NCBI RefSeq assembly: GCF_049304695.1 | Contig: NZ_JBAQOK010000097.1 | Span: 25,810-89,809, forward strand | Length of the DNA: 64,000 nucleotides | Source: Sphingobium sp. | GTDB taxonomy: Bacteria > Pseudomonadota > Alphaproteobacteria > Sphingomonadales > Sphingomonadaceae | Reading direction: 5' to 3' | Shown here: positions 3,032-41,968 of the stretch, piece by piece | How positions within the stretch are numbered: position 1 is the first letter of the stretch | How the letters are laid out: every line of letters starts with the position of its first letter | Program-made: the position numbers and the translations under genes | The notes under the pieces: generated by a model | What the model was told of the DNA's origin: nothing | Databases searched by the model: none | The model's input: the letters and a program-made list of their open reading frames with translations, nothing else

Positions 3032-3181
3032 GGATCGTCCAACGAAATTCAATGATATAACATATCCTATTTAGGTGGGGCTGTTGGTTTGTTCAATGGC
3101 AGTTCGATGCTTTTCCGCACTCTGTTTCTTTTTCGGCTGGACGGCGGCGACGGATTTTGTCATCTGGCCACTCCCAGCCGT

Positions 3182-3266
3182 GCGGGCGTGGTGAAACTGG
3201 TAGACGCGCCGGACTCAAAATCCGGTTCCGCAAGGAGTGTCGGTTCGATTCCGACCGCCCGCACCA
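3182..3266 (+). tRNA. tRNA-Leu (anticodon CAA), encoded CCA
   Basis: Acceptor stem GCGGGCG/CGCCCGC. Anticodon arm CCGGA-CUCAAAA-UCCGG. Long class II variable arm. T arm GUCGG-UUCGAUU-CCGAC. Discriminator A followed by CCA at 3264-3266. Confidence 0.93.
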
Positions 3267-3374
3267 TTATTGCTTGGCCTCAAAACGCTGGGCCGTCGTA
3301 TCCCGGACCCCGGACATTTTCGCATGAACCGGGGCGGCCCATTGGCTTTTTGGCCCCGTGCGGCCCATGGTTAC

Positions 3375-4511: not shown

Positions 4512-4577
4512 GCCGCCTGCCGTAAAGATGGGTGGGGGAGGCTGCAACCTTGGGATGGCGCGCGACGTTGGGGAGCG

Positions 4578-4841
4578 ATGAATGACAGCCTGCTCACTGC
4601 CTTGCAATATTATGGCGCCGGTGCTGCGACTCTCGCCGCGCTGGTTGTTTCGTTGAACTTTGGTCGGCGGATCACCGGATGGGCGTTCGTCCTGTTCGTC
4701 ACCAGTTCGATCGCGCTGATCCTTTGGGGATTTCTGGCGCAGGACAGCGAAGGGATCGGCTGGCAGAATGTCGCGCTGCTGTTCATCAACGCGATCGGCG
4801 TGTGGCGCTATCTGTTTTCGAAGCACAAGCCTCAGGAATGA
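4578..4841 (+). CDS. small 3-TM membrane protein, function unknown
   Basis: 87 aa counted from the ATG at 4578 (MNDSLLTALQYYGAGAATLAALVV...). Three hydrophobic helices and GC-rich third codon positions. The upstream part of the 185-aa track ORF is antisense to the aminotransferase. Confidence 0.55.
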   Translation: MNDSLLTALQYYGAGAATLAALVVSLNFGRRITGWAFVLFVTSSIALILWGFLAQDSEGIGWQNVALLFINAIGVWRYLFSKHKPQE

Positions 4842-5528
4842 TCAGCCGCCGACCTGTGCCTTGCTGACGTCCAGCCGCTTGCCGTTGGTGATGACGACGA
4901 TATCGCCCAGCTTCGTGGCGGCGAACAGTTTTTTGGCGAAGGGTGTCGGCACGCCGATGCAGCCATGGGTGGCATTGCCCCATTTGACGTTGCTGCCATG
5001 GATGGCGACGCCGTCGCTGGTCAGGCGCAGCATATAGGGCATGGGCGCGTCATAGAGGTTGGAGACGTGATCGGCGTCTTTTTGGGTGATGGGAAATGCG
5101 CCAAGCGGGCTGGGCTTGTCGGTTGCGCCATAGAGGATGACGGCGGCCCCGATTTCATAGCCTGCGCGGAAGACGGACAGGGTTTGTGCGCGCAGATCGA
5201 CGGTGATGATGACCGGCCCGGTGGCGGGCGCGCCCTTTTCGTCCCAGGCATAATCGCCGTGGCGGAAGGGACCGTCGATCTTGAGCACGCGCTTGACGGT
5301 CAGGGCGCGGGGGTCGAGCGTCATGGGCTGATCGCTGCGGCGTTCGGCGGGCTTGGCGGGGGGCGGCGCGGCTTCAGGGGCGGCGTGCGGGGCAGGCGCG
5401 GGCTTGGTTTCCTCCGCTGCCGGGCGGTCGATCCAGCCGGTCACGAGTGCGCCGATCGCGACGAGCGCTGCGCCGATCGCCAGCTTGGGTCCGGCTGTCT
5501 TTGCCATCGCTTTCAGCAGTCCCGCCAT
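4842..5528 (-). CDS. L,D-transpeptidase (YkuD domain)
   Basis: N-terminal membrane anchor and an Ala/Pro linker. Catalytic motif HGSNVKWGNATHGCIGV. Confidence 0.88.
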   Translation of the reverse strand: MAGLLKAMAKTAGPKLAIGAALVAIGALVTGWIDRPAAEETKPAPAPHAAPEAAPPPAKPAERRSDQPMTLDPRALTVKRVLKIDGPFRHGDYAWDEKGAPATGPVIITVDLRAQTLSVFRAGYEIGAAVILYGATDKPSPLGAFPITQKDADHVSNLYDAPMPYMLRLTSDGVAIHGSNVKWGNATHGCIGVPTPFAKKLFAATKLGDIVVITNGKRLDVSKAQVGG

Positions 5529-5671
5529 GTTCGTCCTTTGCGCTACGTCATGTTTGGGGCTGGGCCAGAGACGAAGGCTGTGTCCGTTTCGTTGGGGGAC
5601 ACCCCTCCGTCAGGCTTCGCCTGCCACCTCCCCTTGCAGGGGAGGATCGTTATGGCAGGAAAAGGTTAAGT

Positions 5672-7939
5672 TTAGGCTTCGCGGGCGACTTCGGCAGCGG
5701 CGATGGCAGTGAGGTTTAGAATGCCGCGTGATGTTACGCCGGGGGTGAGGACGTGGATCGGCTGCGACAGGCCCATCAGCATCGGACCGACGGTAGGCGA
5801 ACTGGACGAGGCGGAGAGCGCGGTAAGGGTGATGTTCGCGGCATCCAGATTGGGCATGACGAGAAGATTGGCCGGTCCTTCGAACCGGGTGTCTGGGATC
5901 AGCTTTTCGCGCAGCGCCTGGCTAAGCGCGGCATCGGCGTGCATTTCGCCATCTGCGGCAAGATCAGGCGCGGCCTGGCGCACCAGTTTCATGGCGGTGC
6001 GCATCTTGCGCGCGCTGTCGCTGTGCGATGCGCCGAAGTTGGAGTGGGACAGGAGCGCTACGCGCGGGACGAGGCCGAATTGCTTGAGTTCGGTTGCGGC
6101 TAGCAGGGTCATTTCGGCGATCTGTTCGGGCGTCGGGTTTGGCACCATATGGGTGTCGGTGATGAACAGCGCGCCTGCGTCGAGGATCAGGCCCGACAGC
6201 GCATAGACGCGACTTTGCCCCGGTACACGGTCGATGATGCGCAGGACATGTTCGACCTGGCCCCAATATTCGCTGTTGCCCCCAACCAGCGCAGCATCGA
6301 CGCGACCGGTGCGCAGCAGCATGGCGGCGGTCACGGTCGGGCGGCGATAGACATGACGGATGATTTCGGCGGCTGGCACGCCCCGGCGCGCGGCGACGGC
6401 GCGATAGCCCTCCACCAGTTCGCTCATGACTTCATGATCGGTTTCGGGATCGATCACCTCGACATCGCGGCCCAGCTCGAAACGCAGGCCAAGGTCAGGC
6501 AGTTTTCGATCGAGGATGCGGCGACGGCCAACGATGACTGGGCGGACAATGCCTTCGTCCAGTGCGTCCTGTATCGCGCGCAGCACGCGCTCATCCTCGC
6601 CCTCGCCATAGGCAATGCGACGCTGGCCGCCGCGTGCGGCTTCGAACACGGGCAGCATCAACTGGCCCGAACGGGCGTTCTGGCGCGTGAGGCTGCGGCG
6701 ATATTCGTCGAGGTCTAGCGGACGGCGAGCGACGCCGCTGTCCATCGCTGCGCGCGCGACGGCGACGGCGATTTCCCCGATCAGGCGCGGGTCGAACGGG
6801 GTGGGGATGATATAGTCCGGGCCGAACACCAGCCTGCGCCCGCCATAGGCCTGCGCCACGCTGTCATGCGCGGGCAGGCGGGCGAGCGCGGCGATGGCTT
6901 CGGCGGCGGCGGCCTTCATCGCTTCGTTGATCTGCGTCGCGCCGCAATCGAGTGCTCCACGGAAGATATAGGGGAAGCACAGGACGTTGTTGACTTGGTT
7001 CGGATAGTCCGAACGACCCGTGGCGATGATCGCGTCGGGGCGGACTTCGCGCGCGGCTTCGGGCCGGATTTCCGGTTCCGGGTTGGCGAGCGCGAAGATG
7101 AGCGGATTAGGCGCCATGAGCGGCAGCCATTCGGGTTTCAGCACGCCCGGCGCGGAGAGGCCCAGAAACAGGTTCGCGCCCGGCAGCACGTCGGGCAGGG
7201 TGCGCGCGTTAGTGGTGCGGGCATAGCGCGCCATATTGGGTAGCATGCCTTCGCGGCCCGAATGGATCACGCCATCCTTGTCCGTCATGGTGACGTTTTC
7301 GATCGGCAGGCCCATGGAGACGAGCAGATCGACGCAGGCAAGCGCGGCCGCGCCAGCGCCCGATGTCACCAGCTTCGCGTCGGCCAGCGTCTTGCCCTGC
7401 AACACCAGCGCGTTGCGCACGGCGGCGGCGACGACGATGGCGGTGCCATGCTGGTCGTCATGAAAGACCGGAATGTTCATCCGCTCCTTCAGGCGCGCTT
7501 CGATCGCGAAACACTCAGGTGCCTTGATGTCTTCCAGATTGATGCCGCCGAACGTCGGCTCCATCAAGGCGACGGCTTCCACGAACGCGTCCGGGTCGGT
7601 GGTGTCGAGTTCGATGTCGAACACGTCGATGTCGGCGAATTTCTTGAAGAGGACAGCCTTGCCCTCCATCACCGGTTTGGACGCCAGCGCGCCGATCGCG
7701 CCGAGGCCCAGAACGGCGGTGCCGTTGGAGATGACTGCGACCAGATTACCGCGCGCGGTATAGTCCAGCGCCTTGTCGGGATCGGCGGCTATTTCCATGC
7801 AGGGCGCGGCGACGCCGGGCGAGTAGGCGAGCGCGAGATCGCGCTGGTTCACCATTCTCTTGGTCGGTTCTATCCGCAGCTTTCCCGGTTGCGGGAAGCG
7901 GTGATAGTCGAGGGCGGCGCGGCGTGTGTTGTCGTCCAT
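5672..7939 (-). CDS. maeB: NADP-dependent malic enzyme (malic enzyme domain plus C-terminal phosphate acetyltransferase-like domain)
   Basis: 755 aa. Starts [19 protein letters not shown] and contains [12 protein letters not shown]. The long PTA-like C-terminal half is typical of MaeB. Confidence 0.95.
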
Positions 7940-7966
7940 GCGCGCGGCCTTAGAGCCTGTGTTTGC

Positions 7967-8872
7967 CTAGGGCAACCCAATGCGGTCCCAAGGGGCTGTC
8001 GGGACATAAAGCGTAACAAGAAATGCGATGAAGGCGGAGATGGCGGCGGGGGGATTATGCTGCGGCAAATGGATTGCGAACAGGCCGACATCTGCCGACC
8101 CTTCGTAATCCGGCAGGATCTGCCGAACATCGCCGCGCGCGAGCGATGCGCTGATATCCCAGAGCGAGCGTAGCGCAATGCCCCCGCCTGCGAGCGTGAG
8201 TTCGCGCACCAGTTCGCTGCTGTTGGTGCGGACATGGCTGCGTCCCTCCACCGTGACGGCACGTTTTGGCCCGCCCAGCCGCCAGGGCATTTGTCCGTCG
8301 GCAGCGAGCAGGCGATGGTTTTTGAGGTCCGCCACCGTTTTCGGCGTGCCGAAGCGGTCGAGATAGGCGGGCGCCGCGCAGAGGATGCGTCGGTTGGTGG
8401 CCAGCCTGAGCGCGGTGAGGCCCGGTCCGGGATCGGCGGTGATGCGGATTGCCAGATCGGTGCGGCTGTCGATCAGGTCGGTGAAATCGTCGGACAGATT
8501 AATGCTCAAATCCACCCTGGGATGGGCGTCGATAAAGCGTTGCAGATAGGGCGCGAGGTGGATGCGGCCGAAGGAGGTCGGCGCGGTGACGCGCAGTGCG
8601 CCCGACGCGATCGTCGATGTTCCCGACACGCGGCGCTCCGCATCGTCCAGCGCCGCAAGGATGCTGCACAAGTCGGCGTGCAGGCGCTCACCCGCCGGGG
8701 TCAGCGCCAGACGACGCGTGGTGCGATGGATGAGGCGCGCGCCCAGTCGCTCCTCCAGCCGGGCGAGGCGTTTGGACATCATGGCAGGCGAGATATGGAG
8801 GCGGCGACCGGCTGCTGCGAGGCCGCCTTCATCGACTATGTTGACGAACAGTTCGTGGTCGGGGTCCATCAT
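7967..8872 (-). CDS. LysR-family transcriptional regulator
   Basis: 301 aa. N-terminal wHTH (LFVNIVDEGGLAAAGRRLHISPAMMSKRLARLEERLGARL). Divergent from glcB and directly upstream of maeB. Confidence 0.92.
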   Translation of the reverse strand: MMDPDHELFVNIVDEGGLAAAGRRLHISPAMMSKRLARLEERLGARLIHRTTRRLALTPAGERLHADLCSILAALDDAERRVSGTSTIASGALRVTAPTSFGRIHLAPYLQRFIDAHPRVDLSINLSDDFTDLIDSRTDLAIRITADPGPGLTALRLATNRRILCAAPAYLDRFGTPKTVADLKNHRLLAADGQMPWRLGGPKRAVTVEGRSHVRTNSSELVRELTLAGGGIALRSLWDISASLARGDVRQILPDYEGSADVGLFAIHLPQHNPPAAISAFIAFLVTLYVPTAPWDRIGLP

Positions 8873-31314: not shown

Positions 31315-32951
31315 TGAAACCTAAAGATGAGCTGCTCTTCCTGGCCCTTGGTGGGTCGGGGGAGATCGGCATGAATGTCAATCTCTATGGTTGCCAGGGC
31401 AAGTGGGTGATGGTCGATCTGGGCCTGACCTTTGCCGATTCCAATTATCCGGGCGTGGAACTGATCCTGCCTGACCTGAGCTTTATCGAGGATCGTCGGG
31501 ACGATCTGTTGGGTATCGTGCTGACGCACGGGCATGAAGACCATATCGGCGCCATTCCCTATCTGGCCGCCGACCTTGGTGTGCCGCTCTACGCGACGCC
31601 TTTCACTGCCGGGTTGATCCGACTGAAGCTGGAAGAGGAGGGGCTGTCGAAGACGGTCAAGCTCCATGTCATCCAGAATGAAGGCAGCTTCAATCTGGGG
31701 CCGTTTGGCTTCCGTTACGTGCCGCTGGCGCATTCGATTCCCGAAGGCAATGGGCTGGTCATCGACACGCCGCACGGGCGTATATTCCATACTGGTGACT
31801 GGAAGCTGGACGACCAACCCCTACTGGGCAAGCCATCGACGCCTGCGGAACTGACCGCGATCGGTGACGAAGGCGTTCTGGCGCTGGTGTGCGATAGTAC
31901 CAACGTATTCAACGACAAGGCCAGCGGGTCCGAAGGAGCCGTGCGCGAGGGGTTGATGCAGACCGTCGCAGCAGCGAAAGGCCGCGTGCTGGTCACGACC
32001 TTTGCGTCCAACGCGGCGCGCGTTCAGACACTGGGCGAAGTCGCAGCAGCCTGTGGGCGCAAAGTGTGCGTCGCCGGGCGTTCGCTGGATCGCATTATCA
32101 CGACCGCCAAGGCGGCGGGTTATCTCAAGGACTTTCCGCCAACGGTCGATTGGGACGATGTCATGTCGTTGCCGCGCGACGAGGTGATGATCATCGCCAC
32201 GGGCGGGCAGGGCGAAGCGCGGGCCGCACTTGCGCGCGTGGCTTTCGACAGTCATCCTATCAAGCTGGCGGAGGGCGACACGGTCGTTTTCTCGTCCAAG
32301 CAGATCCCCGGCAATGAAATTGCCATTGGTCGCATCCAGAATGCGCTGGCGATGAAGAACATCCTGATGGTGACCGATCGTCAGGCGGAAGTGCATGTGT
32401 CCGGCCATCCGGGGCGGCCCGAACTGGAAGCGATGTATCGCTGGATACGACCTGAAATCCTGCTGCCAGTCCATGGCGAGCGGCGACATATGGCGGAACA
32501 GGCGCGACTGGGCATCACCAGCGGTATTCGCCATGCCGTAGTCCAGTCGAACGGTGACCTGCTGCGGTTGGCGCCCGGCGCGCCGCAGATCATCGGCAAG
32601 CAGGATGTGGGCAGACTGGTGCTGGATGGCGACGTCATCTTGCCTGCCGACGGCGCCACTATCAACGAGCGGCGCAAGCTGGGCCTGCATGGTCAGATCA
32701 GCGTCGCCGTGGCGTTGGACCGCAAGGGCAAGCTGATAGGCTCGCCGACGCTGCGCACGCAGGGCGTTCCAGTCGAGGAAGATAAGGCAGCGTTCCTGAA
32801 GGAAGCAGCCGATGAAGTCGCGACCGTCCTGCCCAAGGGATCGCAGGAAGAAGACGCCCTGCGTGAACGCGTTCGCCTGGCCGTGCGCCGTGTCGCGACC
32901 CGCTGGACGGGCAAGAAGCCGATAGTGGACGTTCTGCTTATTCGGGCGTAA
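31314..32951 (+). CDS. rnj: ribonuclease J (metallo-beta-lactamase/beta-CASP)
   Basis: 545 aa counted from the ATG at 31314 (TAATG overlap with coaX). LTHGHEDHIGAIPYL motif. The track ORF start at 31122 lies inside coaX. Confidence 0.92.
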   Translation: MKPKDELLFLALGGSGEIGMNVNLYGCQGKWVMVDLGLTFADSNYPGVELILPDLSFIEDRRDDLLGIVLTHGHEDHIGAIPYLAADLGVPLYATPFTAGLIRLKLEEEGLSKTVKLHVIQNEGSFNLGPFGFRYVPLAHSIPEGNGLVIDTPHGRIFHTGDWKLDDQPLLGKPSTPAELTAIGDEGVLALVCDSTNVFNDKASGSEGAVREGLMQTVAAAKGRVLVTTFASNAARVQTLGEVAAACGRKVCVAGRSLDRIITTAKAAGYLKDFPPTVDWDDVMSLPRDEVMIIATGGQGEARAALARVAFDSHPIKLAEGDTVVFSSKQIPGNEIAIGRIQNALAMKNILMVTDRQAEVHVSGHPGRPELEAMYRWIRPEILLPVHGERRHMAEQARLGITSGIRHAVVQSNGDLLRLAPGAPQIIGKQDVGRLVLDGDVILPADGATINERRKLGLHGQISVAVALDRKGKLIGSPTLRTQGVPVEEDKAAFLKEAADEVATVLPKGSQEEDALRERVRLAVRRVATRWTGKKPIVDVLLIRA

Positions 32952-32960
32952 TCTGGGGCT

Positions 32961-33230
32961 ATGAACCTCTACGCGATCTTTGCCATCTATGTGCTGTTCT
33001 GGGTGATCAGCGCATTCGTCATGCTGCCCTTCGGCATCCGCACACCCGATGAAACGGGCGAAGTGCTGATCCGGGGGCAGGCGGATAGCGCGCCCAGCAA
33101 CTTCCGACCGGGCATGGTCGCATTACGCGCTACGCTGATGTCGGCTGTCCTGTTCGGGCTATATTATGCCAATTATGTGCAGGGTTGGGTGACGATAGAC
33201 ATGCTGCCGGGCTTTCATGCAGGGCGGTAA
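32961..33230 (+). CDS. DUF1467-family small membrane protein
   Basis: 89 aa. FWVISAFVMLPFGIRTPDE...GQADSAPSNFRPG. This is the usual position after the nuo-birA-coaX-rnj block in alphaproteobacteria. Confidence 0.8.
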   Translation: MNLYAIFAIYVLFWVISAFVMLPFGIRTPDETGEVLIRGQADSAPSNFRPGMVALRATLMSAVLFGLYYANYVQGWVTIDMLPGFHAGR

Positions 33231-33237
33231 GCGGGGA

Positions 33238-33740
33238 TCAGAGTGATTTAAGCCGGTTTGGATAATGCGCATTCGCAGGGCTTCGATACTGTAGTCGGGC
33301 GATCCACTCGCCTGTGACGAGCCGCCGATATTCAGCCGTTGCCTTCGCCCGGTCATGCTTCATGCTGTCGTTGTTCTCAACGAGTGTGAGCCATGGCTGT
33401 GTGGGACATATCTGCCGATTATACGGGGGATCATGTTGTCCTGACGAAAGGCACGGCCGAAAGCGATCAGGCATCCACGAGAGTGCGATCGAAAAATAGC
33501 CAGCCGGTCAGTTCGCAGGGCACTTCCCAATTGTCGATAGTCTGGGCTGCAAAGGCACGCATATCGACCTATGGCAAGGCTGCGCCAGTTTCCGCTCGTT
33601 CCTGTGCGACTATCCGCCTACCGACTCCGCATCGCGGCATAGCCGCGCCGCTTTAGTTCAGCCAACATGGCGGACTTTCCGCCGCCCGAGCAACCGGACA
33701 GGATGACGGAATTGTCCTGCTCAATCCAACCCGGCCGCGC
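33238..33740 (-). pseudogene. decayed small P-loop (AAA-type) ATPase gene
   Basis: Three minus-strand frames each hold part of one protein. Frame a: VILSGCSGGGKSAMLAELKRRGYAA (Walker A at 33672-33698). Frame b: GRRIVAQERAETGAALP*VDMRAFAAQTIDNWEVPCELTGWLFFDRTLVDA, with an in-frame TAG at 33569-33571 where a Trp is expected. Frame c: PWLTLVENNDSMKHDRAKATAEYRRLVTGEWIARLQY. There is no usable start codon after the upstream gene's stop. Confidence 0.8.
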
Positions 33741-36422
33741 CTACTGACGCAGCCGCTCGATCGCCTGTGCCAATGCGACATAGAGTTTGCCCATGTCGGA
33801 CGACAGGATAGCGACACCCAGTGCGTTGCCGTCCCGCGCCGACAGGATGATCCGTAACATCCCTTCGAAATCATGGATGTAGCGGTTTACATGATCGCGG
33901 AACTCCGCATCATTATCATAGTGAAGCGCGATTTCGCGCGACTCGCCCGCGTCCAGCAGTTTCACGGCCCGGCGCGTGAAGACACCCCGATCGCCCTTCA
34001 GATAGGCCGACCACGCCGAATCCGTAACATCGTTCGACAGGATTTTGGTGACATCGATGGCGGTGCTGTTGAGGGATTCGATCAACAGAGCGGAGCGGCG
34101 GGCAAAATGGTCCCGGTCGCGGGTTTCGGACGCGCGTTCCGCTTCCTCGATCCGCTGTTCCACGCTGGCGCTGGTATCGGCGATCGTCAGCAATTGGCGA
34201 GTAAGGCGCTCGGACGCGTGATGCGCGGCCTTCACCGCTTCTTCTGCGACTTGGGCGACATGTTCGATCTGCGCCGTGACGCGCTCGCCTATCACCGTCT
34301 CCATGGCCTTGTCGCTGGCAAGAGCCAATGCTTGCGCTGCTTCGGGAATGGCGCGCGCCAGTGCCTGCCGCGCGCGTTCGGCGGCCTGATCGGCGGTATC
34401 CTTGACCCGCAGGAGCGCAGTGACGAGCAACGGTCCCGCGCCTTCGGTAATGCGCGTAGCGTCCTGATGCGCGCCATCCAGAGCGGTGCGCAGCCGATCG
34501 ACCAATGCGCGATTGGCCTCCAGCCCGCCTTGCGTGCTTTCAAGCCATTCGGTCAGGCGGCTTCCCTGTCCGCGTAACAGTTCTTCCGCTTCCTCGGCCC
34601 GACCCACCAAGGCCTGAGAAATCGCCTCCAGCCGCTCCATTTCAGGGGTCGCGCCACCCAAAAGCGCGCGGCTCTGTTCCATCCGTGCATCGAATCGATC
34701 GAGCGCGCCGGGATAGGTTTCATCCAGTTCGCGCACGCTTGAATCGAGCGCGACGAGCAGCGTTTCGGCGCAGCCAATCAGCTTTTCAGCCGTAATCCCG
34801 CCCGCCGAAAGTGCGCTGTCGATACGTTGCGTCTCGTCTGTCAGCCGGACCAGCGCCTGCGCCAGCCTTTCGCTGCGCGCGAGGGCATTATCCTCCAGGG
34901 TGGCAAAGCGGCCTTCGGTCGAAGCGATTGTGTCGTTAAGATTGGTGTGCAGGCTGGATAGCAGCGTGCGCTGTCCTTCGACCATATGGTCGATCTGGTG
35001 CAGTCGGTTTTCGACATCGCCGATCGTATCGACAAGGCCGGCCACGGTTTCGGACCCGATGGCGTCCAGCGCTGAGCGCGATCGTTCGATCAACGCATCC
35101 AGAGTGGCCGACTGGCCCGTCAGCCCGGCATCAGCCAGGGCAAGCGCCTGCTGCGCGCGATCCAGCGCAGCGGCCAATCGACCGCGCAGGTCGCCCTCCA
35201 TGGCGTCCATGTCCCGCGCGAATGTCGATAGCGTATTTTCACTGGCCCTGCCGATCCCTGCCTGTGCAGCGGCAACCAGTGCTTCAAGCGATTCGGCGCG
35301 GCGGTTAAGCCCGTCGTCAGTCGTAGCCAGCGTTGCGCGCACATTGGCCAGCGCACTGTCCAATCGATCGCGTAGAATTGCCTGCGCCGAATCAAGATCG
35401 CGCATCAACGTGGTACGCATCGTTTCGCTGGCGGTCGCGATGCCGCCTTCCGCCGCATCGACCAGTGCCGTTAGGGCAGAGGATTGTGCGTCCAGATCCC
35501 GCCGGGTGCGATCCATCGCCTGCCGCGCGCCCAGCGTCGTCGCCTCGATCCGGCTTGCGGCCAGATCTGCCAGACCAGTCACTTCCTCGCTCGCGGCCCG
35601 TGTGGATTCCTGAAGCTGATTAAGTTGCCCCGACAGGCTCTTGGTAGCCGAAAGCGTGCGTGCGCGTGCATCGTCGGATAATTCGGCCAGCGCATGCAGT
35701 CTGGCTTCGAGCGTATCGATCCGTTCGGCAAGAGCGTGGCCGTTATCCATGATCTGCGCCGCCATGCGGCCCGTCTTGTCCTCCAGTTCCGGGATGGATG
35801 CGATCAGCATCTCCATCCGCGCAAGCATCGCAGCGCCCGCGCGTTCGGCGGCCTCTGCCCGATCAGACGTCGTCTGAGACCGGGCAGCGATGAGTTCGGC
35901 GGATGCTTCCATATTACTGCTGGCTGCCGCGCCATAGCTGTCGAGCAATTCCGCCTGATCGTGCATCGTTTGACGCGCGGCTTCCAACTGGTCGGCAATT
36001 CGGCCAAGTCGCCGTTCCAGATGGTCAGCCTCCGTCCGAAGGGCGTGAGCAGTATCGAGATAGCGCCGCGATTCGCTGCGGCTGTTGCGCATGAGCAAAA
36101 GATAGGCGACGCCCAACAGTGTCGGCGGAATGGCCAGTGTCGCGAGCGCATTGGCCCACAGGGATGGGGTAGCCAGATCGCCCGATGTGGCGATAGCCCA
36201 ACCGGCAAAACCGACCCAGGCAACCGCGAGCAGGCCAAGCAGCAGCCTGATGCGTGTGATCCAGCCATCGCCGGTTCCGACATGCGGATCGTCCTCTGGA
36301 TCGTCACTCATAACTGTGTGATCCAGAAGCAGAATATCATCCGCCTGTGGATCATCATGAGTCGCGATGTCGGTGTTACGCCAAAATTCGGCGATTGTGC
36401 TGCCCCCTGTCATGGCGCGCAT
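33741..36422 (-). CDS. large membrane-anchored coiled-coil protein (two N-terminal TM helices, long Ala/Leu/Arg/Glu-rich helical region, conserved-looking C-terminal globular domain)
   Basis: 893 aa. TM helices at about aa 55-78 and 88-111. Internal ~62-aa tandem repeats at aa 310-480. C-terminal end reads DSAWSAYLKGDRGVFTRRAVKLL...FRDHVNRYIHDFEGMLR. Confidence 0.85.
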   Translation of the reverse strand: MRAMTGGSTIAEFWRNTDIATHDDPQADDILLLDHTVMSDDPEDDPHVGTGDGWITRIRLLLGLLAVAWVGFAGWAIATSGDLATPSLWANALATLAIPPTLLGVAYLLLMRNSRSESRRYLDTAHALRTEADHLERRLGRIADQLEAARQTMHDQAELLDSYGAAASSNMEASAELIAARSQTTSDRAEAAERAGAAMLARMEMLIASIPELEDKTGRMAAQIMDNGHALAERIDTLEARLHALAELSDDARARTLSATKSLSGQLNQLQESTRAASEEVTGLADLAASRIEATTLGARQAMDRTRRDLDAQSSALTALVDAAEGGIATASETMRTTLMRDLDSAQAILRDRLDSALANVRATLATTDDGLNRRAESLEALVAAAQAGIGRASENTLSTFARDMDAMEGDLRGRLAAALDRAQQALALADAGLTGQSATLDALIERSRSALDAIGSETVAGLVDTIGDVENRLHQIDHMVEGQRTLLSSLHTNLNDTIASTEGRFATLEDNALARSERLAQALVRLTDETQRIDSALSAGGITAEKLIGCAETLLVALDSSVRELDETYPGALDRFDARMEQSRALLGGATPEMERLEAISQALVGRAEEAEELLRGQGSRLTEWLESTQGGLEANRALVDRLRTALDGAHQDATRITEGAGPLLVTALLRVKDTADQAAERARQALARAIPEAAQALALASDKAMETVIGERVTAQIEHVAQVAEEAVKAAHHASERLTRQLLTIADTSASVEQRIEEAERASETRDRDHFARRSALLIESLNSTAIDVTKILSNDVTDSAWSAYLKGDRGVFTRRAVKLLDAGESREIALHYDNDAEFRDHVNRYIHDFEGMLRIILSARDGNALGVAILSSDMGKLYVALAQAIERLRQ

Positions 36423-36493
36423 CCTAGCAGCTTTTGCGCGGGCGGAAATGCCTGTTACGAAAACTTAACGCGTTCCCGATAGCATCTGCCGCT

Positions 36494-36796
36494 ATGTCTT
36501 ATGATCCTGGCGCTCTCAATTCCGCTCTGGCCGCGGCTGTCGGCGACGATAACGCCCTGATCGCGGACTTGCGGGTGGCGTTCATGGAAAGCGCCGAACG
36601 GCAGGTCGATCTGCTCGGGCGTGCGCGCTGCGACGCCAATTGGGCACTGGCCGCATGGCGCCTGAAAGGGCTGGCGGCGAGTTTCGGCATGACGTCCTTG
36701 ATGGTGCTGGCGGACGAAGCGGCGGAGGCCGCTCCGGGCGATCCGCGCATCTTGCGCCGCTTGCGCGCAACGCTGGCCGCGCTCGCACAAGGCTGA
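36494..36796 (+). CDS. Hpt-like (histidine phosphotransfer fold) protein lacking the phospho-accepting His
   Basis: 100 aa counted from the ATG at 36494. The segment ALAAWRLKGLAASFGMTSLMVLADEAE matches the Hpt signature H-x-LKG-x-A-x-x-x-G, but Trp (TGG at 36656-36658) sits where His is expected. Confidence 0.65.
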   Translation: MSYDPGALNSALAAAVGDDNALIADLRVAFMESAERQVDLLGRARCDANWALAAWRLKGLAASFGMTSLMVLADEAAEAAPGDPRILRRLRATLAALAQG

Positions 36797-36898
36797 CACT
36801 CGCTCCAAATTGCGGTTGATCGACGGCTTTGCTTGCGTGAACCGTCTCGTCTTGCGAAAAGGCCGGTTCAACAGCAACAGGATCGTTCAGCGCACCAT

Positions 36899-38065
36899 AT
36901 GAGTTTTGCCGCTATTCTCAGCGCCAGTAGAGCGTCGGGCGATTCGCCGCCGGGATTGCGGGGCAGTCTGCTGTTCGCCGGCCAGACGCTGGTGGAATAT
37001 CAGGCGCGGCAGGCGGCGCAGGCCGGGGCCGACCGCATCATGATCCTGGTCAGCGTCATCACGCCCGCCTTGTCCCAGGCGGTGGATCGCTTGAGCGCCG
37101 ATGGCATCGCGGTGTCGCTGGTCCGCGACATGGTGTCGATGATCCGCGACGTCCCCCGTGACGCCGATATCCTGCTGGTCGCCGATGGCGCGATCGTGGC
37201 ACAAAGCCATGTTGATGCGATAGGTGGTGCGCAGGGCAATGCGTTGCTGGTCACCGACGATAGCCGCGCCAGCACACCGTTCGAGCGGATCGATGCGGGC
37301 CAGCGCTGGGCGGGCTTGGCGCGAATCAGCCCTGCGCTACTGTTTGATACGCTCGACATGATCGGCGACTGGGATTTGTCGCTGACGTTGGTGCGGGCCG
37401 CCGTCCAGCATGGCGCACGACGCGTTACCGTGCCGCAGGACGACCTGATGGAAGGGCGGGTCACGCTGGTCGAAACGCAGCAGCAGGCCGATCTGGTCGC
37501 GAACGCCGTCACGGCGGCGGGCGCGTCCAACGCGCGCGTGCGTGGCGGCGTCGAACATTATGTCCTTGCGCCAATCGCCCGCGCTATCGGTCCCGCGCTG
37601 ATGCGGATGCAGGTGCCTGCCATTCAGGTCAGGATAGCCGGGATCGCACTCGCCGGGATCGCGCTGGTGCCGGTGGAACTGACGTGGACGTTGACGGGAT
37701 TCGCCCTGCTGCTGCTGGCATTGTTGCTGGCGGAGATGGCGGATCGCCTCGACGAACTGGCGTTGCGGGCACCGCCGATGAGCTGGCTGGCTTTCGCCAC
37801 GCCTTCGCTGGCGCTGCTGGGGATCGTGCGTGGTGGCAGCAGTACGATGGCGCTCGACCTCGCGCTTCTGCTGGGCATCATGCTGGTGGCGGATCGCTGG
37901 CGACGCACAGGCAGGGCGCGGCCATGGATGATCGTCACGCCCGGCACGGTGCTGCCCCTGTTGATCGTAGCGGGGCTATTTGGCGTTTTGGCGCAGGGCT
38001 TCCGGGTCGCGATGCTGGCGCTCATCGCTTCGGCTGGCGCGATCATCCTGCGCCCGCGCGACTGA
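36899..38065 (+). CDS. fusion of a nucleotidyltransferase-like N-domain and a multi-pass membrane C-domain, function unknown
   Basis: 388 aa counted from the ATG at 36899. The N-terminal ~230 aa are soluble (AAILSASRASGDSPPGLRGSLLFAGQTLVEYQ...ILLVADG). The C-terminal ~150 aa hold about five hydrophobic helices. Confidence 0.7.
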   Translation: MSFAAILSASRASGDSPPGLRGSLLFAGQTLVEYQARQAAQAGADRIMILVSVITPALSQAVDRLSADGIAVSLVRDMVSMIRDVPRDADILLVADGAIVAQSHVDAIGGAQGNALLVTDDSRASTPFERIDAGQRWAGLARISPALLFDTLDMIGDWDLSLTLVRAAVQHGARRVTVPQDDLMEGRVTLVETQQQADLVANAVTAAGASNARVRGGVEHYVLAPIARAIGPALMRMQVPAIQVRIAGIALAGIALVPVELTWTLTGFALLLLALLLAEMADRLDELALRAPPMSWLAFATPSLALLGIVRGGSSTMALDLALLLGIMLVADRWRRTGRARPWMIVTPGTVLPLLIVAGLFGVLAQGFRVAMLALIASAGAIILRPRD

Positions 38066-38122
38066 AATATTTCGCCGTCAGGGTTTAGTGCATTTTAAGG
38101 ACGTGGGGCTAAGGTTCCTCGC

Positions 38123-39223
38123 ATGAGCGTCTATTCGTCCCTTCATGGAGCGGCCCTGGCCGACAACTGGCCGATGGCGCAAAGGCTGGCCGGGCTGTCC
38201 GCTGTGCCCGTTTCGCATGCCATCGATCTCGCCTTTTTCTTCCCATTGGATGGTCATGCGCGTCATGATGCGTTGATCGCCGAAACGCGGCGGCACCTGG
38301 GCGGCTGCCTCAATGCGATCGAACTGGCGTTACGCGCGTCGCTTGATCATGTGCCTGATATCGCTGCGGCATTGGACGCCTCTCCCGATGCGATATGCTG
38401 GCCCACTGTGCGCGCGCAGCCGACTTTGCTTGGGTCGGCCCTGTTGGCGCATATGCAGATGCGCGCCGGGGTCAGTTTGATGCTGCGCCAATATGGTCAT
38501 CCCCATGCGGACAGCGTTGCAGAGGCGGAGCCTGAAGCCTTGCTGCCTGTGGATGATCCCACATTCGGTGGCGCAGCGGCGGCACTGGTTCTGGCGGAGG
38601 GGCGATGGGCAGTCGCGGGCGGCGACGATCAGCCGATGCGGCCTGACCTGCCAGCGGAATATTTTGCAGAATTGGTCTGGACCGCCGCTGCCTGTCTGGC
38701 AGCCAGAGCGCAGCGGACAATGCCGGATGACGGCGACGCGCTGCTGGCGGCGTTTGAGCGATCCGGGTGGGCTTTGCTTGCCGATCATGATGAGAGCGCC
38801 AGCCCAATTGCCGAAGCAGACCGCCTGATACGCCGACTCGGCGAGCTGAGCGATTCGCCTGAGCTTTTGGGTGCGGCGCTTGACCAGCGTCGATTCCTGC
38901 TGTTTGCAGCGCTGACTGCTCGCCGTCTGCGCATGACGATGATGCAGGTGACAGAGATATTGACCATGGGACCATTGCCGCACGTTGCGACGCTGTGCCG
39001 AGCGTTGGGCGGATCGGATGCGGATTATCGTCACTTGCTGCTGTCCTTGCGTCCGGTTCGGCCATGCCTGACGGATGCGGCGATCGTGACGCTGGCCGAC
39101 CATTATCAACAACTGAGTGATATTCAGGCGGATTGCGCGATCAGCGGCCTGCGGACACCGGCCGCTTTTCGCGCGAAGCTGGATCATTTGCGCGTTATGA
39201 CAGGCGAGGCGCGCAAAGCGTGA
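38123..39223 (+). CDS. hypothetical protein (helical, Ala/Leu-rich; possibly DUF2336-like, not confidently assigned)
   Basis: 366 aa with coding-like codon usage. Its stop overlaps or abuts the next gene's start (GTGA at 39220-39223). Confidence 0.7.
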   Translation: MSVYSSLHGAALADNWPMAQRLAGLSAVPVSHAIDLAFFFPLDGHARHDALIAETRRHLGGCLNAIELALRASLDHVPDIAAALDASPDAICWPTVRAQPTLLGSALLAHMQMRAGVSLMLRQYGHPHADSVAEAEPEALLPVDDPTFGGAAAALVLAEGRWAVAGGDDQPMRPDLPAEYFAELVWTAAACLAARAQRTMPDDGDALLAAFERSGWALLADHDESASPIAEADRLIRRLGELSDSPELLGAALDQRRFLLFAALTARRLRMTMMQVTEILTMGPLPHVATLCRALGGSDADYRHLLLSLRPVRPCLTDAAIVTLADHYQQLSDIQADCAISGLRTPAAFRAKLDHLRVMTGEARKA

Positions 39224-39225
39224 AC

Positions 39226-40596
39226 ATGCCCGCTCATCCCTCGATCATACGCGCAACCCTGTCTGCCGACGGTCGGCTGTTAGCGGCTGATCCGCCGCTG
39301 CTGGCGTTGCAGCGGGAGGCCGGGGCCGATCTGGGCATGGGCTTTGCGGTGCCGCAGCTTGCTGCCATCGCGCGGCTGTCCAGGCGGTTAGGGATCACCG
39401 TGTCGCGCCCGGTCATGGCGGCGACCGACCGATGCGACATCGACATGTGGGTGCGGGCGCGGCCTGAGGGTGAGGGTGTATCGCTATCGGTGATCGACTG
39501 GCATGAACGTCCTGCGGTGGAGGTATCGATCGACGCCGGGCGAAGGGATGCGGATATTGCCGCGCTGGCTGAAGGCTGGACGTGGCAGATCGATCCGCAA
39601 TTACAGTTTCAGATGGTGTTGGATGGCGTCGATACCCATGGCGTGCTGCCGACCGATCAACCGGTGCCAGGTAGCCGCTTTTCCAGCTATTTCCAGCTTC
39701 AGTCTGACGCGGACGGCGACATGGCGATGCTGCGCGGCTTTGCCCAACGGCGGGCCTTTCGCGATCAGGCTGCGACGCTGGCGCGTGATCCCGAGCGGCA
39801 GTTTCGCCTGTCGGGCTTTCCGCTGTTCGATCTGAGTGGTCAGTTGATGGGCTATCGCGGAACCGCCTTTCCGGTCGAGCGCGCGGTGTTCGCCCCACTG
39901 ACGCAGGATGCGTCGGTCACGCTCTATCCGACAGAGTTCGGGCGGCGGCTGGATCGCTCCCTGCGCCAGCCGCTGGGGCGCATTATCGCCAATGCCGACA
40001 CGATCAGCGCGCAGATGGATGGGGCGCTTCGTCCTGATTATGCGGAATATGCGCAGGACATTGCTTCGGCGGGGCGGCATCTGATGGCGTTAGTCGATGA
40101 CCTGGCCGATTTACAGGCGATCGACCGGCCCGATTTCAGCGTCATCAGCGAAGAATTGGACCTGGCCGATTTGGGCCGCCGCGCGGCGGGGCTGCTGTCG
40201 GTGAAGGCGCTGGACCGGACGATTTCGATCGTCGCGCCAGCCCCCGACGTTTCCACCCCGGCGACCGGAGAGTTTCGCCGGGTGCTGCAAATCCTCGTCA
40301 ACCTGATCGGCAACGCCGTGCGCTACGCGCCCGAAGGCAGCGAAGTGCGTGTCGTGACCGAGCGGGAGCATGGCCATTGCCGGATCATCGTGATCGATCA
40401 GGGGCAGGGTGTCGCTCTGGCCGATCGGGAACGGATTTTCGAAAAGTTCGAACGACTGGGACGCGACGATGCCGGTGGCAGTGGCTTGGGCCTTTATATC
40501 TCGCGCCGTCTGGCTCGCGCGATGGGCGGCGATATTCAGATCGGCGGGATGCCGGGACAAGGCGCACGGTTCATCCTGTCGCTGCCAGCGGGATAG
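39226..40596 (+). CDS. histidine-kinase-like protein with an intact ATP-binding domain but no H-box histidine
   Basis: 456 aa. DHp segment EFGRRLDRSLRQPLGRIIANAD aligns with the HisKA signature SHELRTPL, with Arg (CGC at 39955-39957) at the His position. N box ILVNLIGNAVRYAP, G1 DQGQGV, F IFEKFERL and G2 GGSGLGLYISRRLA are all present. An alternative GTG start is at 39220. Confidence 0.85.
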   Translation: MPAHPSIIRATLSADGRLLAADPPLLALQREAGADLGMGFAVPQLAAIARLSRRLGITVSRPVMAATDRCDIDMWVRARPEGEGVSLSVIDWHERPAVEVSIDAGRRDADIAALAEGWTWQIDPQLQFQMVLDGVDTHGVLPTDQPVPGSRFSSYFQLQSDADGDMAMLRGFAQRRAFRDQAATLARDPERQFRLSGFPLFDLSGQLMGYRGTAFPVERAVFAPLTQDASVTLYPTEFGRRLDRSLRQPLGRIIANADTISAQMDGALRPDYAEYAQDIASAGRHLMALVDDLADLQAIDRPDFSVISEELDLADLGRRAAGLLSVKALDRTISIVAPAPDVSTPATGEFRRVLQILVNLIGNAVRYAPEGSEVRVVTEREHGHCRIIVIDQGQGVALADRERIFEKFERLGRDDAGGSGLGLYISRRLARAMGGDIQIGGMPGQGARFILSLPAG

Positions 40597-40621
40597 CGGC
40601 GCGGCGGCCTGAAGCGGTCAC

Positions 40622-40654
40622 AAAAAAACGGCGCCCCGTTCAAGGGCGCCGTTT
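40622..40654. terminator. bidirectional rho-independent terminator between the kinase-like gene and gltA
   Basis: A7 run, stem cggcgccc (40629-40636), 7-nt loop, stem gggcgccg (40644-40651), then TTT. Confidence 0.8.
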
Positions 40655-40681
40655 CCATTCAACCGAACGTCGTCGCTGCGA

Positions 40682-41968
40682 TCAGCGCTTGTCGACAGGC
40701 ACATAGTCGCGCTGCGTCGGGCCGGTGTAGAGCTGACGCGGGCGGCCGATCTTCTGTGCTGGATCGGAAATCATTTCGTTCCACTGCGCGACCCAGCCGA
40801 CGGTGCGGGCGAGGGCGAACAGCACGGTGAACATTTCCGTCGGGAAGCCGATCGCCGACAGGATCACGCCCGAATAGAAGTCGACGTTGGGGAACAGCTT
40901 CTTCTCAATGAAATAGGGATCATTGAGCGCAAGCCTTTCCAGTTCGCGCGCTACGTCGAACACCGGATCGGTCACGCCCATGGTCTTGAGCACGTCTTCG
41001 GCGGTCTTCTGCATCACCGTCGCACGGGGATCGTAATTCTTATAAACGCGATGGCCAAAGCCCATCAGGCGGAACGGATCGTCCTTGTTCTTGGCGCGGG
41101 CGATATATTCGGGGATGCGATCGACCGTGCCGATTTCGCGCAGCATGTTGAGCGCCGCTTCGTTCGCGCCGCCATGCGCCGGACCCCACAGGCAAGCGAT
41201 GCCCGCCGCGATGCAGGCGAAGGGGTTGGCTCCCGATGACCCTGCCAGACGCACGGTCGAGGTCGAGGCGTTTTGCTCGTGGTCGGCATGCAGGATGAAG
41301 ATCTTGTCCATCGCATCGACGATAACTGGATCGGGCACATAATCTTCTGCGGGGACGGAGAATGTCATGCGCAGGAAGTTGGCGGTGTAGGACAGGTCGT
41401 TGCGCGGATAGACGAAGGGCTGGCCCACCGAATATTTATACGCCATTGCCGCGATCGTGGGCATCTTGGCGATCAGGCGGTGGCTGGCGATCCGCCGCTG
41501 CACCGGATCGTTTATGTCGGTCGAATCATGGTAAAAGGCGGAAAGCGCGCCGACCACGCCGACCAGGATCGCCATGGGATGGGCATCGCGACGGAAACCA
41601 CGGAAGAAGGCGCTCAACTGTTCATGCACCATCGTGTGGCGCGTGATCGTGGAGATGAAGTCGTCCAACTCGCTCTTCGACGGCAGTTCGCCGTTCAGCA
41701 TCAGGTAGCAGACTTCCATGAAGCTGGATTCTTCGGCCAACTGACCGATCGGATAGCCACGATGCAACAGGACGCCTTCATCGCCATCGATGTAGGTCAG
41801 ACCAGATTCGCAACTGGCGGTCGATGTGAAGCCGGGATCATAGGTGAACATGCCGGTATTGGCGTACAGCTTGCGAACGTCGATGACCTGGGGACCGACA
41901 GTGCCGTCCATGACGGCATAATCCTTGGCTTCCCCGCCCAGTGTCAAAGTGGCATTTTTATCCGACAT
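40682..41968 (-). CDS. gltA: citrate synthase
   Basis: 428 aa counted from the ATG at 41968, behind AAGGAGA. Contains [14 protein letters not shown] and [11 protein letters not shown]. Confidence 0.97.

Follow-up and report, generated by a model that had tools for sequence, protein, structure and literature searches.

A sphingomonad gene cluster that joins a GPR/RgsE-family homolog to Hpt-like and kinase-like proteins lacking the phospho-acceptor histidine

INTRODUCTION

DivL, RetS, and plant AHP6 regulate genuine phosphorelays without being phosphorylated themselves. DivL of Caulobacter has a specific Tyr in place of the acceptor His, and AHP6 of Arabidopsis, a pseudo-Hpt with Asn for His, inhibits a phosphorelay by competition. 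Here, we analyze a 64,000-nt stretch of DNA from Sphingobium sp. (RefSeq assembly GCF_049304695.1, contig NZ_JBAQOK010000097.1, positions 25,810 to 89,809), called the window below, and within it a cluster of five genes at 33741 to 40596, which we name A to E. A first-pass annotation, made from the letters of the DNA, had tentatively read this cluster as a scaffold or pseudo-enzyme signaling module with degenerate signatures side by side.

To our knowledge, GPR and RgsE are the sole structural organizers of polar growth known in Rhizobiales. RgsE (SMc00190) is the Sinorhizobium meliloti homolog of the Agrobacterium growth-pole-ring protein GPR (Krol et al., PMC7327166). Two N-terminal transmembrane helices anchor these proteins, and the remainder is cytoplasmic and helical; they form a ring at the growing pole and have roles in polar growth and rod shape (PMC8262873, PMC7327166). 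In the survey by Krol et al., RgsE homologs were found only in Rhizobiales, Emcibacterales, and Rhodospirillales (PMC7327166). Our literature search found no paper connecting GPR with sphingomonads.

RESULTS

Five intact genes under purifying selection

The open reading frame (ORF) table confirmed the layout given by the first-pass annotation, in which a minus-strand gene encoding 893 amino acids (aa), A, diverges across a 71-bp spacer from B, C, D, and E (Table 1). All five reading frames are intact. The stop codon of D overlaps the start codon of E in the sequence GTGA, and the gap between B and C is 102 bp. G+C content is uniform, at about 60 to 67%, and Sphingobium proteins are the nearest relatives of all five proteins, which assigns the window to a Sphingobium chromosome. 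We compared the genes with those of Sphingobium cupriresistens, a species about 77% identical, and obtained ratios of nonsynonymous to synonymous substitution rates (dN/dS) of 0.145 for A, 0.110 for B, 0.227 for C, 0.173 for D, and 0.155 for E, with 0.062 for gltA. All five genes are under purifying selection.

E belongs to a kinase-like family without the acceptor histidine

The AlphaFold2 (AF2) model of E (predicted local distance difference test, pLDDT, 74) has PAS-like domains at aa 10 to 98 and 120 to 218, a DHp hairpin at aa 237 to 299, and a CA domain. Foldseek matched this model to HK853, WalK, ShkA (6qrj, 31% identity), DivL (4q20), and RetS, and ShkA was the kinase of highest identity among the structural matches. 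Pfam found HATPase_c in E (E value, 1.1e-25); the HisKA match scored 26.4 bits (cut-off, 26.9) and began at model position 13, past the His site. The H-box region reads L-D-R246-S-L-R-Q-P-L, versus S-H-E-L-R-T-P-L in canonical kinases. The first-pass annotation had noted Arg at the H box of a kinase-like protein that keeps its other boxes, and both observations were borne out: the residue is Arg246, and the N (NLIGNA, 361), G1 (D393-x-G-x-G), F (FEKF, 407), and G2 (GSGLGL, 420) boxes are all present. Invariant or near-invariant in the E alignments are N361/N365, D393-G395-G397, F407/F410, and G420-G422-G424.

Searched with E, a set of 1.84 billion cluster representatives yielded about 135 clusters whose members are full-length and ~450 aa long, at 33 to 55% identity. 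Canonical kinases (SHELRTPL), mostly 530 to 900 aa long, appear only below about 36% identity to E. Common to the E family are LRxPLxRIIANAE in the first DHp helix, YAxYAxDIAxAGRHL in the second, and every ATP-binding box. We counted residues at the acceptor site on about 120 representatives at 50% identity and found P (32), R (18), A (15), S (12), E (10), T, D, G, L, Q, and others; only two representatives (P0459 and P0472) have His, and one has Tyr. Within Sphingobium, Arg is at this position in 120 of 120 orthologs. These alignments indicate that the acceptor site of E has been released from constraint with neighboring surfaces still conserved, and that Arg is not a selected replacement. 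They also point to an order-wide His-less kinase family, in which the pseudo status is a family property and not strain decay.

Loci of the E family came from a contig scan keyed on a generic G2-box peptide, in which 16 of 80 loci held true members and the others ordinary kinases, and from contigs encoding matches of the representative search. Both His-keeping members, DHSFKPSI at locus L087 (P0472) and DHALRSPI at L173 (P0459), come from loci in which B is absent. A rule that E keeps His where B is absent was rejected: L173 and L087 agree with it, but L012, L084, L004, and L013 contradict it. We also discarded the idea that His287 (AGRHL, in the second DHp helix) serves as the acceptor instead, since HK853 has the equivalent His and His287 sits about 6 residues off the canonical level. 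We take the His in the HK853 sequence SNHLENLL to match the near-invariant His287 of E, which would make the latter an ordinary HisKA feature.

B is an Hpt-like protein with tryptophan at the phospho-acceptor site

B reads AAW55-RLKG-LAASFG, versus H-x-x-K-G in Hpt domains, and in a profile-profile alignment Trp55 faces His72 of the S. meliloti Hpt. The match between B and the Rhizobiaceae Hpt is weak (hhalign probability, 7.9%; E value, 0.0044). Pfam Hpt matches (E < 0.01) were found in 12 of 19 B-family members, the best at 4.7e-7, and NCBI labels the B orthologs "Hpt domain-containing protein." The Trp that had been read from the translation at the phospho-His place is thus Trp55, codon TGG.

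The sequence WRLKGL is present in 118 of 120 Sphingobium orthologs. Of 15 B orthologs, only the one at L088 has His at position 55; the other 14 have W, A, M, K, E, S, or L there. Two motifs are invariant in the aligned family, R-x-R-C-D-x-N-W and P-G-x-P (in L085, "APGDP" has E in place of D). As judged from this alignment, Trp55 is not a selected replacement, and the site in B has been freed from constraint. The first-pass annotation had asked whether Trp55 and the H-box Arg are conserved in orthologs; both are constant only within Sphingobium and vary in other genera. Nor do orthologs generally carry His, the pattern that it had linked to strain-specific decay: His is absent from ~118 of 120 E-family representatives and from 14 of 15 B orthologs.

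The B ortholog that keeps His (SAHRLQALG) belongs to a metagenomic lineage (L088, ~4089 to 4794) in which Pro occupies the acceptor position of E. The ortholog from Sphingomonas parapaucimobilis (L091) has AEDAGEW in place of R-C-D-x-N-W. A longer, TTG-initiated B ORF from 36434 was judged unlikely, as orthologs begin MSYDPG.

B resembles AHP6 in being a small single-domain protein that keeps the x-K-G-x-A-x-x-x-G helix without the phospho-His. It differs in being bacterial, about 100 aa long, and paired with a GPR-type gene, with its R-x-R-C-D-x-N-W and P-G-x-P motifs of its own. The resemblance to AHP6 is functional rather than phylogenetic.

Pseudokinase or kinase with a noncanonical acceptor

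We considered whether E could be a working ATP-dependent kinase that acts on a noncanonical acceptor (Ser, Thr, Tyr, or other) in E, B, D, or a distant substrate; the cluster would then encode a phosphorelay of unusual chemistry and no pseudo-enzyme scaffold. Across the family, the N, G1, F, and G2 boxes are invariant or near-invariant while the H-box site drifts freely; therefore, selection maintains nucleotide binding. The His-kinase-like Ser kinases SpoIIAB and RsbW and the plant phytochromes are precedents, as is the split logic of CheA, in which the dimerization domain lacks His and the Hpt-like P1 domain is the substrate. E and B likewise are two-component-type parts encoded side by side, and the invariant R-x-R-C-D-x-N-W of B lies just ahead of its former His helix. 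However, no conserved alternative acceptor is evident in E, His287 being an ordinary HisKA feature, and many loci that retain E have no B. Moreover, pseudokinases often keep nucleotide binding as a conformational switch. We consider an active kinase unlikely, though not far-fetched.

A bolder form of this idea would make E and B a split CheA-like pair with new chemistry, in which E phosphorylates B or D on a non-His residue and controls the GPR-type scaffold. GPR/RgsE proteins across Alphaproteobacteria would then be outputs or platforms of an undescribed Hpt phosphorelay. Candidate non-His acceptors in B are the invariant Cys46 and Asp47 of R-x-R-C-D-x-N-W. We regard this scheme as a long shot.

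A is a GPR/RgsE-family homolog by its C-terminal domain

A aligns with orthologs of 766 to 1,015 aa in other genera, and its C-terminal ~135 aa are highly conserved. Kyte-Doolittle windows showed hydrophobic segments at aa 54 to 80 and 92 to 111 and nowhere else in A. The middle of the protein, about 650 aa, is helical and indel-rich, with an Apolipoprotein (PF01442) score of only 17.1 bits (cut-off, 90); this family scores 37 bits in the A ortholog of L084 and 258 bits in RgsE. By BLASTP, the C terminus of A matched residues 1967 to 2088 of S. meliloti RgsE with 35% identity over 129 aa (E value, 1e-19), and 16 columns of the domain are invariant across sphingomonad and Rhizobiaceae sequences. 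The S. meliloti match is the C terminus of a 2,089-aa gene annotated "kinesin," which we identified as RgsE (SMc00190) because its length matches (PMC7327166).

This similarity places A in the GPR/RgsE family through its C-terminal domain. Beyond this homologous domain of ~130 aa, A shares with GPR (Atu1348) and RgsE two N-terminal transmembrane helices, here predicted, and, less clearly, a long alpha-helical body with an apolipoprotein-like signal. Like RgsE, it has a small Hpt-type gene divergent from its gene start. A differs in its length (893 versus about 2,100 aa), in its Apolipoprotein score (17 bits versus 258 for RgsE), and in having an Hpt-like neighbor without His; in addition, polar growth is not known for sphingomonads. 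A link of the cluster to cell polarity would rest on analogy with GPR/RgsE function in Rhizobiales.

The first-pass annotation had described A as a membrane coiled-coil protein of TipN architecture. TipN, the Caulobacter new-pole landmark, has two N-terminal transmembrane helices, a large cytoplasmic coiled coil, and about 890 aa. The likeness of A to TipN is one of overall architecture, whereas the demonstrable homology of A is to the GPR/RgsE C-terminal domain.

A tblastn search with the C-terminal domain reached Rhizobiaceae chromosomes filed as plasmids in PLSDB. Two such records, L090 (CP090106.1) and L092 (NZ_CP069303.1), of 3.7 and 4.6 Mb and labeled "pSymB" and "unnamed1," are evidently mislabeled chromosomes; they hold the core genes rgsE (annotated "kinesin"), petA with adjoining cytochrome b and c1 genes, and folP. 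In PADLOC, A matched the ZorA and JetC models weakly (E values of about 1e-5), and B to E matched nothing. ZorA is a MotA/ExbB/TolQ protein with a long tail, and the matches of A to ZorA and JetC most likely reflect long-helix composition only.

Hpt genes are paired with GPR/RgsE-type genes across orders

In S. meliloti and Shinella, a 122-aa Hpt with AHRLKG, above the Pfam cut-off, is divergent from rgsE. We scanned metagenome contigs with the alignment of the A C-terminal domain and counted pairing at 54 loci with a complete GPR/RgsE-type gene (1,035 to 2,817 aa), a pair being defined by an Hpt-like ORF that is read from the other strand and lies upstream of the gene start, within 2.5 kb. 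Such a divergent ORF was present at 47 of the 54 loci, and 43 of these 47 paired ORFs have His at the acceptor site; the others have K, T, L, and L. The sphingomonad B, in turn, has lost its His in nearly all lineages. The Rhizobiales-like GPR-Hpt loci had no gene related to C, D, or E in the surrounding 10 kb. The comparison suggests that A|B is the sphingomonad form of an old, widespread GPR-Hpt pair, in which the Hpt turned into a pseudo-Hpt. The His-less paired Hpts of Rhizobiales-like loci (L108, L097, L152, and L163, among L093 to L172) indicate that His was lost more than once.

D is a DUF2336 protein

D had been called a hypothetical protein. The gene is intact, as described, but it does have a family: Pfam DUF2336 (PF10098), at 36.6 bits with a cut-off of 34.6. 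DUF2336 matches were found in 8 of 16 D-position proteins, the best at 1.4e-28, and the L084 ortholog scores 199 bits. The stop codon of D overlaps or abuts the start of E not only in the window but also in L001 to L003, L084, L086, L087, and L173; the gap in L085 is 1 nt. NCBIfam yielded no useful match to A, B, C, or D, PDB sequence searches returned nothing useful for C or D, and literature searches on DUF2336 and on locus tags of GPR neighbors returned nothing relevant.

Janakiraman et al. are said to have described Caulobacter SpmY as a DUF2336 protein in 2016. SpmY is functionally coupled to a kinase and an Hpt at the pole in the ShkA-ShpA-TacA pathway, and in the window genes for DUF2336, kinase-like, and Hpt-like proteins are clustered physically. 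In contrast, the Caulobacter genes are unlinked and their phospho-sites intact, and E lacks receiver domains. SpmY is cited in PMC11519897 as a polar factor that regulates the TacA pathway and stimulates phosphatase activity, and a genetic screen names it alongside shkA, shpA, and tacA (bioRxiv 10.1101/2020.07.21.215269).

C is doubly degenerate

The N terminus of C reads AAILSASRASGD, with no Gly-rich loop; orthologs read ALI-A-x-E/H. The Pfam NTP_transf_3 match (17.8 bits) is below the cut-off and covers model positions 16 to 55 only, past the Gly-rich loop, in agreement with the earlier statement that the nucleotidyltransferase-like domain has lost it. No Pfam or NCBIfam family was above cut-off for C, which is annotated "hypothetical" in every relative. 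The AF2 model has a pLDDT of 64 overall and about 88 in the membrane domain. Its best Foldseek match in the PDB was AF2299 (4o6n_A; E value, 4e-7; template modeling scores, 0.57/0.64), over the full length and 385 columns, and the cytosolic half also matched the nucleotidyltransferases KdsB and MurU.

C has the two-domain architecture and the predicted fold of AF2299 and IPCT-DIPPS, archaeal CDP-alcohol phosphotransferases with a cytidylyltransferase-like domain. It differs from them in lacking the nucleotidyltransferase Gly-rich loop, in its sequence identity of about 10%, and in its CDP-alcohol-phosphotransferase signature, D-x2-D-G-x2-A-R...G-x3-D-x3-D. In Sphingobium the latter is reduced to D282-x2-D285-E-x2-L-R290, with the G-x3-D-x3-D half gone; this remnant is not conserved in other genera, which have lost the signature, and the membrane-domain sequence as a whole is poorly conserved. 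Family-invariant residues of the cytosolic domain are E129/R130/D132 (F-E-R-I-D), G139 (R-W-A-G), and L164/R166/Q170 (T-L-L-R-x-A-V-Q). Among 19 C-position proteins, NTP_transf_3 was found in 6 (best, 8.3e-8) and CDP-OH_P_transf in 1, the ortholog of L084. That protein is 42% identical to the C cytosolic domain (E value, 5e-25) and scores 34.3 bits for CDP-OH_P_transf, with the motif DGVDGKLAR...G-x2-E-x3-DK. C is doubly degenerate; it descends from an AF2299/IPCT-DIPPS-type enzyme and is a pseudoenzyme in most lineages.

One alternative for the whole module is a tie to membrane-lipid or inositol-phosphate metabolism in place of polarity, with C as a CDP-alcohol-phosphotransferase relic or sensor and A as a lipid-associated protein; C, D, and E would monitor or regulate head-group synthesis. 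The model of C resembles AF2299, and the C ortholog of L084 still scores as CDP-OH_P_transf; a second CDP-OH_P_transf gene precedes it, and genes for inositol-1-phosphate synthase, a nucleoside triphosphate (NTP) transferase, and Wzi follow, with DUF2336 and E after them. GPR, too, has been proposed to act in lipid metabolism owing to its apolipoprotein-like repeats (PMC8262873). However, this enzyme set occurs at one locus only, the CDP-OH_P_transf signature is missing from 18 of 19 C orthologs with a poorly conserved membrane domain, and the cluster in the window has no lipid genes. We think a lipid-linked module very unlikely. The L084 genes in question lie at 3111 to 8727, between A and DUF2336-E (two CDP-alcohol phosphotransferase genes, inositol-1-phosphate synthase, NTP transferase, and Wzi), and the set resembles an inositol-phosphate or CDP-alcohol pathway at the B/C position.

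The three degenerate signatures of the first-pass annotation are all real, and C holds an additional one, in its membrane domain. Four catalytic or acceptor signatures gone in three adjacent genes could be taken for strain-specific or recent decay of an ordinary two-component system and an enzyme. This is refuted by the intact frames, by dN/dS ratios of 0.11 to 0.23, and by the presence of the same losses in 120 Sphingobium orthologs and across genera; we give decay a negligible chance, and the first-pass annotation, too, had argued against chance decay.

Gene order across sphingomonads

The conserved order is RNase J - DUF1467 - A(-) | B - C - D - E - gltA(-) - gltX(-) - comEC - lexA(-). We found it in several Sphingobium, in Sphingomonas parapaucimobilis, Novosphingobium capsulatum, N. 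nitrogenifigens, and Parapontixanthobacter aurantiacus (Erythrobacteraceae), and in metagenome-assembled genomes (MAGs) of Sphingomonadaceae and Sphingomonadales, including Chakrabartia and Sphingomicrobium MAGs. In the loci inspected, B was never seen without A, and E adjoins gltA in all, with its start overlapping or abutting the end of D in every locus that has D. C-D-E was seen only in sphingomonad-type loci. A large minus-strand gene of Sphingopyxis was rejected as an A ortholog; it is gyrA.

In S. parapaucimobilis (L091, NZ_CP155749.1), the entire cluster is on an 880-kb replicon labeled a plasmid. This replicon also carries gltA, gltX, RNase J, coaX, birA, and nuoL-N, which points to a chromid or to an assembly or labeling issue. 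In one Sphingobium locus (L002, 1499 to 4907), a DarT and macrodomain pair (DarTG-like), a phage-type integrase, and IS21 genes lie a few kilobases upstream; therefore, the upstream flank of the cluster is an insertion site.

Spacer, hairpin, and gap

We aligned 13 A|B spacers. In the window, the spacer holds GGAA-N7-TTAC (36444 to 36458) and, overlapping it, TTAC-N6-TTAA (36455 to 36468), which is conserved in four Sphingobium sequences. The full CtrA site consensus is TTAA-N7-TTAA (PMC6180460). Perfect copies number 4 in 420 kb of related loci, and 3 of them are in the A|B spacer, at L016 6594 to 6608, L085 7412 to 7426, and L089 8358 to 8372, aligned with the window element; the lineages are N. 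capsulatum, Parapontixanthobacter, and a metagenomic relative. There is no perfect copy in the 64-kb window. The consensus in these relatives would fit cell-cycle control of the A|B pair; it provides no evidence for the window itself.

The first-pass annotation had closed the cluster with a bidirectional terminator at 40622 to 40654. The hairpin is real (40626 to 40654), with a folding energy of -24.3 kcal/mol on the plus strand and -31.1 on the minus strand (z of about -5), but a U7 tail is present only on the gltA strand; the tail on the E strand, UUUCCAUU, has a weaker U tract. By these features it is a classic intrinsic terminator for gltA. We found no terminator-like site between B and E.

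A 510-bp stretch with no convincing gene (33231 to 33740) separates the DUF1467 gene from the 3' end of A. A conserved small RNA there was rejected; Rfam gave no match, and the DNA showed no similarity to that of the equivalent gaps in related loci, S. cupriresistens included. Rfam found no RNA family in 32900 to 41000.

Table 1. Coordinates of the cluster features in the window
Feature	Position	Strand	Basis
Gene A, 893 aa; predicted membrane-anchored long alpha-helical protein, short GPR/RgsE-family member	33741-36422	-	ORF; weak Pfam Apolipoprotein and DUF1664
A, two predicted N-terminal transmembrane segments, aa 54-80 and 92-111	36090-36263	-	Kyte-Doolittle windows
A, C-terminal domain, ~135 aa, homologous to the RgsE/GPR extreme C terminus	33744-34148	-	BLASTP
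A|B divergent promoter region, 71 bp	36423-36493	.	Alignment of 13 A|B spacers
Gene B, 100 aa; Hpt-like protein without phospho-His	ATG 36494 to 36796	+	ORF; Pfam Hpt below cut-off
B, Trp55 codon TGG at the Hpt phospho-acceptor His position	36656-36658	+	Alignment
Gene C, 388 aa; AF2299/IPCT-DIPPS-like architecture	ATG 36899 to 38065	+	ORF; AF2 model, Foldseek
C, cytosolic nucleotidyltransferase-like domain without Gly-rich loop	36899-37543	+	Pfam partial match, alignment
C, membrane domain, CDP-alcohol-phosphotransferase-like fold	37613-38056	+	AF2, Foldseek, alignment
Gene D, 366 aa; DUF2336 protein	38123-39223	+	ORF; Pfam PF10098
Gene E, 458 aa; PAS-like, PAS-like, DHp, CA kinase-like protein without phospho-acceptor His	GTG 39220 (or ATG 39226) to 40596	+	ORF; Pfam, AF2, Foldseek
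E, Arg246 codon CGC at the H-box phospho-acceptor position	39955-39957	+	Alignment of E with canonical kinases
E, CA (ATP-binding) domain	40150-40590	+	N, G1, F, and G2 boxes conserved in alignments
G+C-rich hairpin between convergent E and gltA	40626-40654	.	11-bp stem, folding energy

DISCUSSION

The pseudo-enzyme or scaffold reading of the first-pass annotation is reasonable given the family-wide loss of His and the purifying selection. We tentatively favor a form of it, possible though a little short of probable, in which two juxtaposed conserved modules form a membrane-tethered pseudo-two-component scaffold that works by binding proteins and nucleotide and not by His-to-Asp phosphotransfer. 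The mechanism that we infer would run as follows. E would dimerize as a pseudokinase, with the PAS domains and ATP binding setting its state. The lower DHp surface, which is conserved in E and is the receiver-docking region of kinases, might dock D, B, or a receiver or kinase whose gene lies elsewhere, in the manner of DivL, RetS, and AHP6. D could modulate E, as SpmY acts on the ShkA-ShpA-TacA relay in Caulobacter, and B, having lost phosphotransfer, may work as an adaptor or competitor. A and C would tether the assembly at the membrane, possibly at the pole or growth zone.

The first-pass annotation had likened the logic of the cluster to DivL. E is indeed built like DivL, with PAS domains, a HisKA-type DHp domain, and a CA domain without the acceptor His, and presumably it too binds partners. 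However, DivL has its specific Tyr, whereas the sites in E and B vary freely. E also differs from DivL in having no membrane anchor and only two PAS-like domains. It is about 31 to 36% identical to its nearest canonical kinases.

Several observations weigh against a joint pseudo-two-component scaffold. The Hpt score of B itself (Pfam PF01627, 20.8 bits) is below the cut-off of 24.6, and a sequence-profile search of the PDB with B found no solved Hpt structure, only a spurious human T-cell leukemia virus capsid. AF2 confidence in the cytosolic domain of C is moderate. There is no receiver-domain gene in the cluster or in the related loci inspected, and the strict conservation of the ATP-binding boxes of E suits an active enzyme at least equally well. 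Gene content varies among the loci. C-D-E occurs without A|B in Sphingopyxis, L086, and L013, with gyrA at the place of A in Sphingopyxis and L086; A lacks its partner B in L012, L084, L087, and L173; D is missing from L014, L089, and L010, and C from L088. The flanking genes RNase J, DUF1467, gltA, gltX, comEC, and lexA are equally syntenic, and adjacency alone is no proof. The five genes are two separable modules, A|B and C-D-E, and a joint function of all five is therefore hypothetical.

These points bear on the question of whether there is a five-gene system at all. The old A|B pair and the sphingomonad C-D-E operon could be merely adjacent and independent, an arrangement in keeping with C-D-E directly downstream of gyrA in Sphingopyxis and L086, with Rhizobiales-like GPR-Hpt loci whose surrounding 10 kb lack relatives of C, D, and E, and with the conservation of the flanks from RNase J-DUF1467 to gltA-gltX-comEC-lexA, a core-genome block of high synteny. 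The 102-bp gap between B and C could also house a separate promoter. On the other hand, Sphingobium, Sphingomonas, Novosphingobium, Parapontixanthobacter, and several MAGs all retain the adjacency, and no terminator-like site interrupts B to E. Each module also has a His-less two-component part, B in one and E in the other, a thematic coincidence if the modules are unrelated. We judge mere adjacency improbable, yet a serious contender. The first-pass suggestion that the five genes form one module stands in part: the order is kept in several genera, but the cluster comes apart into two modules.

The individual parts are of known kinds: a pseudokinase, a pseudo-Hpt, a GPR/RgsE scaffold, a DUF2336 protein, and a CDP-alcohol-phosphotransferase fold. 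In the literature that we searched, there was no description of their combination, of the His-less kinase family, of sphingomonad GPR homologs, or of a general GPR-Hpt pairing, and the first-pass annotation likewise knew of no described system with this composition.

The pairing of GPR and Hpt genes provides a testable lead, that of a phosphorelay into or out of the growth-pole ring. Sphingomonads offer a natural experiment in this respect, as they retain the scaffold-Hpt pair without the phospho-His, beside a His-less kinase-like protein that has an ATP site. Our analysis also assigns families to proteins that many sphingomonad genomes label "hypothetical," "kinesin," or plain "sensor histidine kinase." If A to E interact, they would represent order-wide bacterial pseudo-two-component signaling, more extensive than that of DivL or RetS, and would help to define the roles of Hpt and DHp domains without phosphate.

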